The notes under the pieces: generated by a model
The model's input: only the letters and a program-made list of their open reading frames with translations
Databases searched by the model: none
Told to the model about the DNA's origin: nothing
Assembly (NCBI RefSeq): GCF_003018115.1
Contig: NZ_CP027457.1
Source: Escherichia coli
Lineage (GTDB): Bacteria > Pseudomonadota > Gammaproteobacteria > Enterobacterales > Enterobacteriaceae
Length of the DNA: 64,000 nt
Strand: one strand, 5' to 3'
Part shown: one piece after another, positions 54,353 to 57,065 of the stretch
Layout of the letters: every line of letters begins with the position of its first letter
Position numbering within the stretch: the first letter of the stretch is position 1
Made by a program: the position numbers and the translations under genes

Positions 54353-54724
54353 ATGAATAAGATAATAGTTGATCTTGACGGTACTTTAACTGAGGAAGAT
54401 ACAAATGATTATACTAAAGTTAAACCAAAACTAAAAGTTGTTAAAAAATTGTATGAATTTAAAAAAATGGGATTCAGTATTGTAATAATGACAGCAAGGA
54501 ATATGCGAACATTTGATGGTAATATTGGAAAGATTAATATACATACACTTCCTGTAATCATTGACTGGCTTAATGAAAATAATATCCCGTACGATGAAGT
54601 TATTGTGGGGAAGCCATGGTGCGGTAATAAGGGATTTTATGTTGATGATCGGGCACTAAGGCCTTCTGAATTTGCAAGATTAAATCTTCAAGAGATAAAC
54701 GAATTATTTGATAAGGATAAATAA
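54353..54724 (+). CDS. HAD-superfamily phosphatase-like protein (O-antigen cluster gene 1)
   Basis: Start at MNKIIVDLDGTLT (HAD motif I DxDGT at 54371-54385) inside track ORF 54275..54724; AT-rich codon usage. Confidence 0.65.
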   Translation: MNKIIVDLDGTLTEEDTNDYTKVKPKLKVVKKLYEFKKMGFSIVIMTARNMRTFDGNIGKINIHTLPVIIDWLNENNIPYDEVIVGKPWCGNKGFYVDDRALRPSEFARLNLQEINELFDKDK

Positions 54725-56313
54725 TGCTTTTAATACTATCGTCTGCGTATATTGATATTGATTTACAGTCTGAATTTGGTCGGTTGCCACCGAGCATGTT
54801 ACCGCTAGGAAATAAACGATTAGTTCAACATCAAAAAAAACTTCTTAACACGAATGAGTTGATGATAATCACTTTACCTAAATCATATAAAATATCAGAA
54901 TGGGACAGGAAGTGGTTAGATAATAATAATATAAAAATAGTCTTTGTTAATGATGGTGGGGCGCTTGGTGAATCGGTATTATATGCTATTGAATATATTA
55001 AAACATTAAACATTTCTGAACATCTCAGGATTTTGTATGGAGATACTTTGATTCTTTCAAATATAAAAGATGACTCAAATGTAATCGCTGTATCTAACTC
55101 TGAGGATAATTATAACTGGGCTAGAGTCGAAAATCAGAATGCATATATAAAAATATCCACCGAAAATGATGTGGACATTTTAGGAGGAGATATACTTTGT
55201 GGCTATTTTTCATTTAGTGATATAGATCTTCTTCGGGAGTGTTTGATTTCTAATAATTATAACTTTATTGAAGCCATAAAAAGTTACCATGCAAAAAGTT
55301 TTCTATTTGTTAGAAAAATTGATGAATGGTTGGATTTTGGTCATGTGAATACTTATTACAAGTCAAAGATGAAATATACAACGCAAAGAGCATTCAATGA
55401 GTTATATATTAATTCAGATTGGGTATGCAAATCTAGTCAGGATTATGAGAAGATTTTAGCTGAGGCGAACTGGTTTGAAAAAATACCACTGGAATTAAAA
55501 AAATATATACCACAGTACTTAGGTAAAGAGTCTAAAAATAATAAGAGTGCAAGTTATAAACTAGAATATTTGTGTCATACTGCACTAAATGAATTATATG
55601 TCTTTAGTGAATTACCGCTAACTGTATGGAAGTCAATATTGGAAAAATGCCTTGACTTCGTTCGAGAGAGTAAAAGTTATATACCATCTGATAAAGAACG
55701 ATTCTCAACAATTAATGAGTTATTGATTGACAAGACCAATGCTAGGCTTGTCTCTTTCTGTTCAGAAAAACAATTTTCTATTAATGATAAATGGGACTTT
55801 AAGGGGAAAAGGATTAGTGTCTCTGATATACTTGATGTAGCGGCTAAATATATCCCTAATGATAATAATCCATCTTTGATGCACGGAGACTTATGCTTTA
55901 GTAATATATTATTTGATTTTAGAGCAGGTAGAATTAAATTAATTGATCCTCGAGGATTATCTGTTGATAGAAATTATACAATTTATGGTTCATACTATTA
56001 TGATTTAGCTAAACTTAGTCATTCAATATTGGGAATGTATGATTGGATAGTGGCAGGCTATTGTGATGCGAACATCTGTGAACGAAAAATAGAATTGAGT
56101 TTTGTTAATGATAAAAAAATCGAAAATATAAAAAGTATTTTTATTGACATGATTACTGCACAATTCGATATTACTCTAAATGAATTGTACGCAATGCAAA
56201 TTTATCTATTCTTATCAATGTTACCACTCCATTCAGATGATGTGCAACGGCAAAAAGCATTGTTCGCAAATGTCTTTAGATTATATGAACTTTTACAGGA
56301 GATTGAAAAATGA
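54724..56313 (+). CDS. Two-domain protein: N-terminal nucleotidyltransferase-like region and C-terminal choline/aminoglycoside-kinase-like domain
   Basis: 529 aa; C-terminal Brenner motif HGDLCFSNILFD (HGD at 55882-55890) and LIDPRG; start overlaps the upstream stop. Confidence 0.6.
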   Translation: MLLILSSAYIDIDLQSEFGRLPPSMLPLGNKRLVQHQKKLLNTNELMIITLPKSYKISEWDRKWLDNNNIKIVFVNDGGALGESVLYAIEYIKTLNISEHLRILYGDTLILSNIKDDSNVIAVSNSEDNYNWARVENQNAYIKISTENDVDILGGDILCGYFSFSDIDLLRECLISNNYNFIEAIKSYHAKSFLFVRKIDEWLDFGHVNTYYKSKMKYTTQRAFNELYINSDWVCKSSQDYEKILAEANWFEKIPLELKKYIPQYLGKESKNNKSASYKLEYLCHTALNELYVFSELPLTVWKSILEKCLDFVRESKSYIPSDKERFSTINELLIDKTNARLVSFCSEKQFSINDKWDFKGKRISVSDILDVAAKYIPNDNNPSLMHGDLCFSNILFDFRAGRIKLIDPRGLSVDRNYTIYGSYYYDLAKLSHSILGMYDWIVAGYCDANICERKIELSFVNDKKIENIKSIFIDMITAQFDITLNELYAMQIYLFLSMLPLHSDDVQRQKALFANVFRLYELLQEIEK

Positions 56314-57065
56314 TCGTTATACCAATGGCTGGTATGAGTTCTCGATTTCGGAATGCAGGCTATAAAAAGCCGAAATATATGCTAAAAGCTCATGGTATCA
56401 CTCTGTTCTCTCATTCTGTTTCTAGCTTTAAAAGTTATTTTAATAATGAGGTTTTTATCTTTATTGTAAAAGATATTGACGGAAGTGAATTTGTTAAGAC
56501 TGAAGTGAAAAAACTCGGAATTTTGCATTATCATATTATTTTGTTAGAGCAGACAACTCGAGGTCAAGCTGAATCAGTATATAATGGATTGAAACAACTC
56601 CAAGAAAAAATAATGATCAGTCCAACCGAGTCTTTAACTATTTTTAATATTGATACTATAAGATGTAATTTTATGTATCCAAAACTTCATGAAAGAGGTG
56701 ATGGTTATCTTGAGGTTTTTTCAGGAGAAGGGGATAATTGGTCATTTGTGAAACCTGTTAATAATGAGTCAACATTAGTAATAGAAACAGCTGAAAAAAA
56801 ACCAATATCAAAATTATGCTGTACTGGGTTGTATTATTTCTCTAGACTCCAGTATTTTTTCGAAGCTTATGATTTATATATTTTAACACCCAAAGATAGT
56901 TGGGATAAAGGGGAGCTTTATGTAGCTCCGTTATATAATATTCTGATCGCCCAAAAGAAAGAAATACACTACCACAAAATAAATGTAGGTGATGTGTTTT
57001 TTGCTGGTGTTCCCAAGGAATATGAAGATTTCTGTAAGATAGATTATGAATCTTTTGTTGGGTAG
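56310..57065 (+). CDS. Nucleotidyltransferase (sugar- or alcohol-phosphate cytidylyl/uridylyltransferase-like)
   Basis: 251 aa; N-terminal IVIPMAGMSSRF resembles the G-x-G-x-R nucleotide-binding loop of NTP transferases; ATGA overlap with the upstream gene. Confidence 0.6.
   Translation: MIVIPMAGMSSRFRNAGYKKPKYMLKAHGITLFSHSVSSFKSYFNNEVFIFIVKDIDGSEFVKTEVKKLGILHYHIILLEQTTRGQAESVYNGLKQLQEKIMISPTESLTIFNIDTIRCNFMYPKLHERGDGYLEVFSGEGDNWSFVKPVNNESTLVIETAEKKPISKLCCTGLYYFSRLQYFFEAYDLYILTPKDSWDKGELYVAPLYNILIAQKKEIHYHKINVGDVFFAGVPKEYEDFCKIDYESFVG

Follow-up and report, generated by a model that had tools for sequence, protein, structure and literature searches.

The 64,000-nucleotide stretch of Escherichia coli DNA analyzed here (contig NZ_CP027457.1 of RefSeq assembly GCF_003018115.1; below, the window) carries an O20 O-antigen gene cluster, at the head of which lie three overlapping genes. 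They encode a small HAD-superfamily phosphatase, a 529-aa protein that fuses a nucleotidyltransferase-like domain to a kinase domain, and a separate nucleotidyltransferase (NTase). On sequence grounds, this trio is the O-antigen copy of the kfoI-kfoE-kfoH cassette of the E. coli K4 capsule, and a split-NTase relative of the AfhE/AfhF pathway of bacteriophages. As the best overall explanation, we consider it likely that the cassette makes a nucleotide-activated furanose, in the first place D-fructofuranose (Fruf), from an ordinary sugar phosphate. We know of no biochemical definition, in the literature, of the Fruf donor of bacterial surface glycans; linking the cassette to the phage pathway for UDP-arabinofuranose (UDP-Araf) would provide a concrete three-step mechanism for it. 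The loss of fructose in a K4 kfoE deletion mutant and the activities of AfhE and AfhF were already known, to which we add the folds, the motifs, the synteny, and the homology.

The link to K4 comes from one group of cassette loci in E. coli, which lie in a kps capsule locus. This locus encodes a 686-aa family 2 glycosyltransferase (GT2) that matches the chondroitin synthase of PDB entry 2z86 with 1455 bits, which identifies it as the K4 locus. The three genes stand in the same order and in overlapping frames in O20 and in K4 (where they are orf3 or kfoI, kfoE, and orf1 or kfoH), and their products are identical over the full length at 63% for the HAD protein, 44% for the fusion (522 aa in K4), and 50% for the NTase (241 aa in K4). 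The N-terminal domain of the K4 fusion is degenerate like that of O20, and the NTase is separate in both. On the other hand, K4 is an ABC-transporter (kps) capsule whereas O20 is a Wzx/Wzy O antigen, and O20 lacks counterparts of kfoD and kfoB, which neighbor the cassette in K4. The published primers for the K4 kfoE deletion map around exactly the 522-aa open reading frame (ORF), so that the O20 529-aa protein is a KfoE homologue. This deletion yields chondroitin without its beta-fructofuranose branch, and because of this phenotype KfoE has been called a "fructosyltransferase" in the literature. Contrary to this label, its fold and motifs point to a kinase carrying a pseudo-NTase domain.

In the window, the first-pass annotation had placed the three genes directly after a JUMPstart element at the head of the O-antigen cluster, and this was borne out: the ORFs lie on the + strand at the stated coordinates, and the JUMPstart has its ops element 5' of them (Table 1). 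The start/stop overlaps between the ORFs are 1 nt and 4 nt, and RefSeq annotates the same three coding sequences in a 99.5% identical O20:H12 genome. For the first gene, whose protein begins MNKIIVDLDGT, the ORF list also offered a start at 54275 (149 aa), which was set aside because the homologues and RefSeq favor 54353. Its product had been described as HAD phosphatase-like, and rightly so: it matches the profile TIGR01689 over residues 1-123/123 with 196.8 bits, above the curated NCBIfam cut-off of 162, and the catalytic residues D7, D9, T11, K87, D98, and D99 are intact and invariant in 26 and in 68 homologues. By sequence, it matches PDB 1xpj at 2e-56 and PDB 9iqw at 1.2e-9 (1.6e-26 by profile), the latter being 100% identical to the HAD protein of RB69-like Mosigvirus phages. 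A profile search of PDB with the HAD protein (E<=10) returned 1xpj, 9iqw, the phosphatase of polynucleotide kinase (PNK), and GmhB. The HAD protein is homologous to orf3/KfoI of K4 and to AfhF of phages, and we propose that it acts on a furanose bisphosphate by stripping off its terminal (omega) phosphate.

The 529-aa protein was more refractory to direct searches, which gave marginal matches to aminoglycoside phosphotransferase (APH) and NTase entries of Pfam/NCBIfam and nothing in a sequence search of PDB. A single-sequence AlphaFold2 prediction was unusable, with a predicted local distance difference test score (pLDDT) of 35, and an alignment of 90 homologues was used instead, giving a model with a pLDDT of 95 and a predicted template modeling score (pTM) of 0.93. 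Structure matches to this model confirmed both the NTase and the kinase folds, which the first-pass annotation had proposed to seek by profile searches and structure prediction. The kinase motifs HGDxCFSN (of the HGDxxxxN type) and IDPRG are invariant across the family. Thus, the earlier description of a kinase domain fused to an NTase-like region stood as regards the folds; the N-terminal domain, for its part, turned out to be without the catalytic GxGTR loop and without the PK lysine, and reads LLILSSAY...LPPSMLPL at these places. Both elements are kept in one of the 90 family members, an Enterococcus phage protein, while the bacterial KfoE-type proteins and that of Ralstonia phage phiRSL1 share a conserved S-[AG]-A-Y...P-P-[SA]-F-L-P, with the Arg and the Lys missing. 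The fused N-domain is probably non-catalytic and a partner or scaffold of the separate NTase. GMPPA and KONJAC, two pseudo-enzyme partners with structures among the fold matches, would be a comparable case. The "eukprot" set of eukaryotic proteins (39 member sequences) also holds an entry that agrees at 100% with residues of the 529-aa protein of O20; this entry is most likely an E. coli contamination of a eukaryotic assembly.

The third gene encodes the separate nucleotidyltransferase that had been predicted. It shares about 60% identity with PDB 4evw, which is a Vibrio cholerae structural-genomics entry called NDP-sugar pyrophosphorylase. The NTases of the RmlA family are defined by a P-loop GxGxR, a PK motif, a GxA motif, a Mg-binding Asp, and an EK(P) motif. 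The corresponding set in the 251-aa protein (PMAGxSxRF, PK, GQA, FNID, and EK) is conserved at >=95% in 77 homologues, namely at P5, M6, G8, S10, R12, F13, P21, K22, G85, Q86, A87, N113, D115, E162, and K163. Since all NTase motifs are kept in this protein, which is paired with degenerate N-domains, we take it as the working nucleotidyltransferase. RefSeq names it "glycosyltransferase family 2 protein", a label that we conclude from the motifs to be wrong. Its proposed reaction is the coupling of a furanose-1(2)-phosphate with a nucleoside triphosphate (NTP) to give a nucleoside diphosphate (NDP)-furanose. The family names BcbE and BcbF derive from Pasteurella multocida B/E, and InterPro uses the name BcbE.

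The second comparison is with phages. A study from 2026 described phages that decorate the 5-hydroxycytosine of their DNA with D-arabinofuranose (D-Araf) and that encode an arabinose-5-phosphate (arabinose-5-P) isomerase, a 1xpj-like HAD protein, and an NTase/kinase fusion (PMC13326640). In the statements of that study which cite He et al. 2026, AfhE of phage HY126 is an arabinose-5-P kinase, giving Araf-1,5-bisphosphate, and a UDP-arabinose pyrophosphorylase, and AfhF is a Mg-dependent phosphatase that converts Araf-1,5-bisphosphate to Araf-1-phosphate (PMC13326640). UDP-Araf was accepted by phage glycosyltransferases in vitro (PMC13326640). What these systems (coliphage HY126; RB69, with gp51 and gp52:53; Acinetobacter phage DLP3, with gp81 and gp82) have in common with O20 is a small HAD protein of the 1xpj/9iqw type adjoining a fusion of an NTase fold and a kinase fold. 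We showed that a profile of the KfoE family aligns over both domains with an AfhE-like protein from a T4-like phage of Acinetobacter (hhalign 98.3%, E 1.4e-14, 401 columns). By tblastn, Ralstonia phage phiRSL1 and Enterococcus phages proved to encode homologues over the full length, next to thymidylate-synthase-like genes. However, the phage proteins are only 22-31% identical to those of O20. Moreover, the N-domains of the T4-like and Enterococcus phages keep the P-loop (AAGRGTRM, GAGLATRL) and the PK lysine, both of which the O20 N-domain lacks. The phage NTase domain is catalytic and has no separate NTase gene beside it, whereas the bacterial cassette has one. The phages co-encode the isomerase and glycosylate DNA, whereas the O20 cluster has no such isomerase; and the phage sugar is an aldopentose, that of bacterial K4 a ketohexose.

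The distribution of the separate NTase follows the state of the fused one. An NTase of roughly 245 aa accompanies only a degenerate or absent fused NTase: all bacterial loci have it, as do phiRSL1 and Synechococcus phages, and none was found in the Enterococcus or T4-like phages. In phage S-SKS1, the HAD protein, a kinase-only protein, and the NTase are on three separate genes. The modules of three phages outside the T4-like arabinosylating group, phiRSL1 (4992-7150), Enterococcus phage 9183 (4648-6623), and S-SKS1, lie next to homologues of thymidylate synthase or dU-hydroxymethylase, and that of phiRSL1 is also flanked by genes for an adenylylsulfate (APS) kinase and a sulfotransferase-like protein. 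These neighbors hint at further sugar hypermodifications of DNA.

Among bacteria, the cassette is widespread. Searching representatives of 50%-identity clusters, we found 2843 relatives of the 529-aa protein, 884 of them below 1e-30 and nearly all with the same length and architecture; in a scan of one genome per species, relatives occurred in at least 582 species. The module had been called unusual in the first-pass annotation, which is true of the O20 cluster (5 of 5426 complete E. coli genomes) and not of the cassette. We surveyed the neighborhoods of the best 80 loci, one per species. A homologue of the 251-aa protein adjoins the KfoE homologue in all 80, and the HAD gene is present in 73; several loci without it end at contig ends, and the order HAD-fusion-NTase is kept in almost all. 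The hosts comprise Vibrionaceae, Shewanella, Marinobacter, Pseudomonas, Acinetobacter, Burkholderia, Bacteroidales, Chitinophagaceae, Alphaproteobacteria, Campylobacter jejuni, Helicobacteraceae, and an Erysipelotrichaceae metagenome-assembled genome (MAG). This wide spread and conserved order indicate a mobile, tightly conserved cassette and not an oddity of O20. There is no sugar-phosphate isomerase among the recurrent neighbors in the 80 genomes, which fits a substrate taken from central metabolism. The commonest additional neighbor is a WavE-like protein (37 loci), followed by lipopolysaccharide (LPS)-core genes; the WavE-like gene is directly adjacent in 29 species, so that WavE is a candidate for the transferase that uses the cassette product. 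No glycosyltransferase common to all cassette loci was found, WavE being frequent yet absent in O20 and K4. KfoD, KfoB, a Vibrio 294-aa protein, and an E. coli 291-aa protein had no NCBIfam match.

Within E. coli, 129 complete genomes proved to contain related trios when searched sensitively at the DNA level. In the O78 cluster of avian-pathogenic E. coli (APEC), a trio of 125, 540, and 244 aa stands between wzy and wzx, and a WavE-family gene is found in the same cluster. In two more kps region-2 types, of group-2 capsules, the genes of the cassette are permuted to NTase, HAD, and fusion (8130-10802 and 8228-10889 of their own stretches); a TagF-like polymerase and a large acyltransferase accompany it in one of them, and a 1157-aa HAD-annotated protein in the other. 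The 63-kb plasmid pMB9366_2 of an O25b:H4-ST131 strain bears the trio at 6854-9604 within a capsule-like locus, which further contains KpsC/KpsS-like genes, a Stealth protein, and a TagF-like polymerase. The trio also heads another E. coli Wzx/Wzy cluster and sits in a non-O1 V. cholerae cluster; that E. coli cluster precedes the same insertion sequence (IS), Stealth, and TagF-like genes as on pMB9366_2. Some capsule loci of C. jejuni have the trio as well: strain GP013 carries it at 4827-7446 of its retrieved stretch, and three "unknown" genes of strain IA3902, CJSA_1353-1355 (240, 507, and 132 aa), match it in size and order (PMC7901785, Table 4).

From these data, we propose the following pathway. 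The kinase domain of the 529-aa protein would phosphorylate the anomeric hydroxyl of a furanose omega-phosphate to give a bisphosphate, from which the HAD protein would remove the omega-phosphate to leave an anomeric sugar phosphate. The 251-aa NTase, with the degenerate N-domain as its partner or scaffold, would then join this sugar phosphate to an NTP, and an O20 glycosyltransferase would build the sugar of the resulting NDP-furanose into the O unit. With fructose, the series would run from fructose-6-phosphate (fructose-6-P) to fructose-2,6-bisphosphate, fructose-2-phosphate, and NDP-fructofuranose. That the cassette follows a kinase-phosphatase-NTase route to an NDP-furanose is highly probable. 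For the sugar itself we give fructose an even chance, and we infer the substrate, the nucleotide, and the acceptor in O20. Three candidate precursors are already in the cell, namely fructose-6-P, arabinose-5-P, and ribose-5-phosphate (ribose-5-P), and for the substrate, which the first-pass annotation had left unnamed, a furanose phosphate of D-arabino configuration is our best inference, with fructose-6-P as the likeliest. Fructose is favored because the sole genetic evidence in bacteria, that of K4, concerns fructose, and because no isomerase or dedicated precursor-making enzyme accompanies the bacterial cassette. Indeed, the ring configuration of D-fructofuranose is that of D-arabinofuranose, which makes a homologous enzyme set plausible for fructose. 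Fruf is found in the V. cholerae core, in Haemophilus influenzae type e, and in E. coli K11 and K52; the title of one reference describes K52 as "fructose-containing". The fuller proposal, in which NDP-D-fructofuranose is made via fructose-2,6-bisphosphate and fructose-2-phosphate and is the fructose donor for K4, the V. cholerae core, and other glycans with fructose, and in which O20 and probably O78 bear Fruf that is lost in acid, is more tentative, and we put it somewhat short of even.

Several points weigh against this explanation and against fructose as the sugar. We know of no demonstration of NDP-fructose, or of any ketose sugar nucleotide, in bacteria. The published O78 tetrasaccharide reportedly requires only three ordinary glycosyltransferases and has no phosphate and no extra sugar, although the O78 cluster has the cassette. 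Mutual identity among the homologues of O20, K4, V. cholerae, and O78 is only 35-47%, so that substrate specificity is not safely transferable between them. The arms of the K4 kfoE deletion (14250-14299 and 15869-15918 of the retrieved K4 stretch) remove the ATG of the NTase gene and, from the HAD gene, its stop together with the three codons before it; since both neighbors are clipped, the phenotype implicates the cassette and not KfoE alone or one step. Moreover, the type strain for HS1 of C. jejuni makes its fructofuranose branches via the 849-aa protein HS1.08, in a locus without the trio (PMC7901785), and the cassette is hence not the sole route to Fruf. Finally, the O20 polysaccharide is given in a review of E. 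coli O antigens (2019/2020) as a two-sugar repeat of ribofuranose (Ribf) and Gal, from chemistry of 1976-1982, with no fructose. The same review deemed this structure a misfit to the galF-gnd Wzx/Wzy cluster, left it out of its analysis, and proposed that its cluster lies elsewhere.

A furanose that is labile in acid, and was missed by the published chemistry, is probably part of the O20 antigen. If so, this would explain the misfit between the published structure and the cluster. In the same way, the loss of a ketofuranoside in the mild acid step of O-polysaccharide release would reconcile the O78 genes with the O78 chemistry, and O78, a veterinary-vaccine serogroup, may possibly bear an unreported labile side group. 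The O137 structure was tried as a proxy for that of O20 and dropped, since sources conflict on whether the cluster is common to both: Iguchi et al. found the O137 cluster 99.7% identical to that of O20, which was disputed by DebRoy et al.

The same three enzymes could also make UDP-D-Araf, as AfhE and AfhF do, from arabinose-5-P provided by KdsD/GutQ, and O20 would then have D-Araf. The sole biochemically characterized relatives do use arabinose-5-P. E. coli makes this compound for Kdo (3-deoxy-D-manno-octulosonate), and arabinose was reported in the capsule of P. multocida type B, whose locus names the HAD family. Nevertheless, we regard this alternative as unlikely. The isomerase that the phages co-encode is missing both from the O20 cluster and from the recurrent neighbors, and K4, the sole bacterial polysaccharide with genetic evidence, has fructose and not arabinose. 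The cassette is moreover present in the Erysipelotrichaceae MAG, a Firmicute expected from general knowledge to be without the Kdo pathway, and the phage proteins, with 22-27% identity, are far more distant from the O20 protein than K4 KfoE, with 44%.

A second pentose-based possibility is that the cassette makes NDP-Ribf from ribose-5-P and is the source of the Ribf reported in O20. This antigen has one unusual sugar on record, which is Ribf; ribose-5-P, also a furanose omega-phosphate, is unlike arabinose-5-P at C2 only; and the cluster contains no recognizable ribofuranosyltransferase dependent on phosphoribosyl pyrophosphate (PRPP). Against this, a two-sugar repeat is typical of ABC-transporter pathways and was assigned by the review outside the five-glycosyltransferase Wzx/Wzy cluster; gPRT and PRP enzymes, which depend on PRPP, account for the beta-Ribf residues known so far; and K4 has the cassette and no ribose. 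We hold NDP-Ribf to be quite unlikely.

The bisphosphate could itself be the donor, as with PRPP. The 251-aa protein, which is GT-A-like and would be the "KfoE/KfoH fructosyltransferase" of the literature, would then transfer a sugar-omega-phosphate, and the HAD protein would dephosphorylate the glycan. The lack of a glycosyltransferase common to all cassette loci, by which the transferase could be within the cassette, speaks for such a scheme, as do the action of the HAD enzyme after transfer in the Ribf system and the GT2 name given by RefSeq to the 251-aa protein. It is very unlikely, however, on four counts. The 251-aa family keeps all sugar-1-phosphate NTase motifs in canonical order. The HAD profile finds AfhF, which acts on the free bisphosphate, while the same search of PDB (E<=10) returned neither Bcs3 of H. 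influenzae type b (Hib) nor the T. composti ribofuranosyltransferase chain, i.e., no PRP domain. The phage glycosyltransferases used UDP-Araf in vitro, and the WavE-family neighbors are better transferase candidates. PRPP-based ribofuranose synthesis by gPRT and PRP had also been considered as the principal explanation and was rejected: the HAD protein is not PRP-like, there is no gPRT candidate, the rest of the cluster bearing standard RefSeq family names (Wzy, Wzx, GT61, GT25, GT4, PssD, and PssE), and the Rib-Gal polymer misfits the cluster.

The first-pass annotation had read the module as a kinase-then-nucleotidylyl-transfer route, either of the LicA/LicC type or to a sugar, and had set a phosphate-linked substituent against homology to a typed cluster that needs none. 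The general logic is supported through the homology to AfhE/AfhF; the LicA/LicC part is not supported. In a LicA/LicC-type route, a kinase for a small alcohol (choline, ethanolamine, or glycerol) and a CDP-alcohol would lead to a phospho-substituent on the O antigen. The resemblance is at the level of folds, which are common to all APH kinases and all NTases. By RefSeq names, the O20 cluster contains no LicD, LicB, or phosphotransferase gene, and such a route needs no phosphatase, yet the HAD gene is conserved in the cassette. Furthermore, the typed cluster to which homology is found, that of K4, uses the cassette for a neutral fructofuranose branch, and the O78 cluster has the cassette while its published structure reportedly has no phosphate. 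We therefore regard a phospho-substituent as extremely unlikely, and keep the NDP-furanose route as the preferred one.

The cluster around the cassette is consistent with an O20 assignment. The 3' part of the window runs from the colanic-acid genes wcaK-wcaM through galF (53114-54019) and on to gnd. Between 54000 and 63500 it matches the galF-gnd region of five complete genomes at 99.5-99.8%, one of which is O20:H12, and RefSeq names the wzx and wzy genes there "O20/O137 family". The G+C content of the cluster is about 30%; in galF and the colanic-acid genes that flank it, the value is about 53%. As had been noted from the sequence, it is free of rml, dehydrogenase, and epimerase genes, going by RefSeq names. 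One of the five O20 glycosyltransferases presumably uses the cassette product; a comparison of these enzymes with WavE, KfoD, and KfoB revealed no relationship. The ops/JUMPstart element marks the start of RfaH-dependent O-antigen operons. The ops 8-mer GGCGGTAG occurs eight times in the window (at 4867, 10167, 10677, 18067, 29356, 29943, 42701, and 54305), versus 1.3 expected from shuffles.

Table 1. Positions of the cassette genes, their domains, and related features (in the window unless stated otherwise)
Feature	Position	Strand	Basis or remark
ops element GGCGGTAG of JUMPstart	54305-54312	+	Exact match; 41 bp 5' of the first gene
HAD-superfamily phosphatase, TIGR01689 "EcbF-BcbF capsule biosynthesis phosphatase" (123 aa)	54353-54724	+	ORF list; profile match
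KfoE-type fusion protein (529 aa)	54724-56313	+	ORF list
N-terminal domain of the fusion (about aa 1-215), sugar-1-phosphate nucleotidyltransferase fold	54724-55368	+	Without GxGTR loop and without PK lysine
C-terminal APH/choline-kinase-fold domain of the fusion (about aa 216-529)	55369-56313	+	Predicted anomeric kinase on furanose omega-phosphate
Stand-alone nucleotidyltransferase, KfoH/BcbE type (251 aa)	56310-57065	+	ORF list; PDB 4evw 4.7e-83
Five glycosyltransferase genes (GT61/DUF563, GT25, GT4, PssD, PssE)	59613-63414	+	ORFs and RefSeq names
O78 O-antigen cluster stretch	8667-14597 of the retrieved APEC stretch		

If the proposed pathway is true, the accepted O20 and O78 O-antigen structures would be incomplete, a labile furanose having been lost in preparation, with a bearing on serotyping, on phage-receptor work, and on glycoconjugate vaccines against avian-pathogenic O78. 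The assignment would also correct the labels of thousands of genes, now called "GT2", "hypothetical", "aminoglycoside phosphotransferase", or "capsular biosynthesis protein", and it bears on the industrial production of K4 chondroitin, in which fructose removal is a process step.

Three known systems help to place the cassette. The gPRT plus HAD-type PRP enzymes of Klebsiella O4/O7 and Hib Bcs3 resemble O20 in that a furanose derived from a sugar phosphate enters a surface polysaccharide with the participation of a HAD enzyme. On the contrary, their donor is PRPP, their HAD domain acts on the glycan after transfer, and they involve neither a kinase nor an NTase. The glycero-manno-heptose pathway (GmhA, the HddA/HldE kinase, GmhB, and the HddC/HldE NTase) has a chemical logic identical to the one proposed here, leading from sugar-7-phosphate to sugar-1,7-bisphosphate, sugar-1-phosphate, and NDP-sugar, with a HAD phosphatase midway. 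The O20 HAD protein shows weak sequence similarity to GmhB (E about 0.02), and the NTase fold of the cassette is structurally like HddC. However, the heptose kinases are of the GHMP or ribokinase type whereas that of O20 has an APH fold, O20 has no GmhA, and its HAD protein belongs to another subfamily (TIGR01689). We thus regard the heptose pathway as an analogy, not as one to which the cassette belongs. The third system is the LPS-core cluster of V. cholerae, in a lineage with a protein 98% identical to 4evw, which has the same trio as O20. There, the trio and a WavE gene (PF07507) lie amid genes for heptosyltransferases, a Kdo transferase, a Kdo kinase, and an O-antigen ligase (8050-11685 of the retrieved stretch), with the WavE-family gene directly 3' of the cassette, whereas O20 has no WavE. 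The closest solved structures to the O20 proteins, 1xpj and 4evw, were structural-genomics deposits without an assigned function, and they correspond to two genes of this V. cholerae core (wav) cassette.

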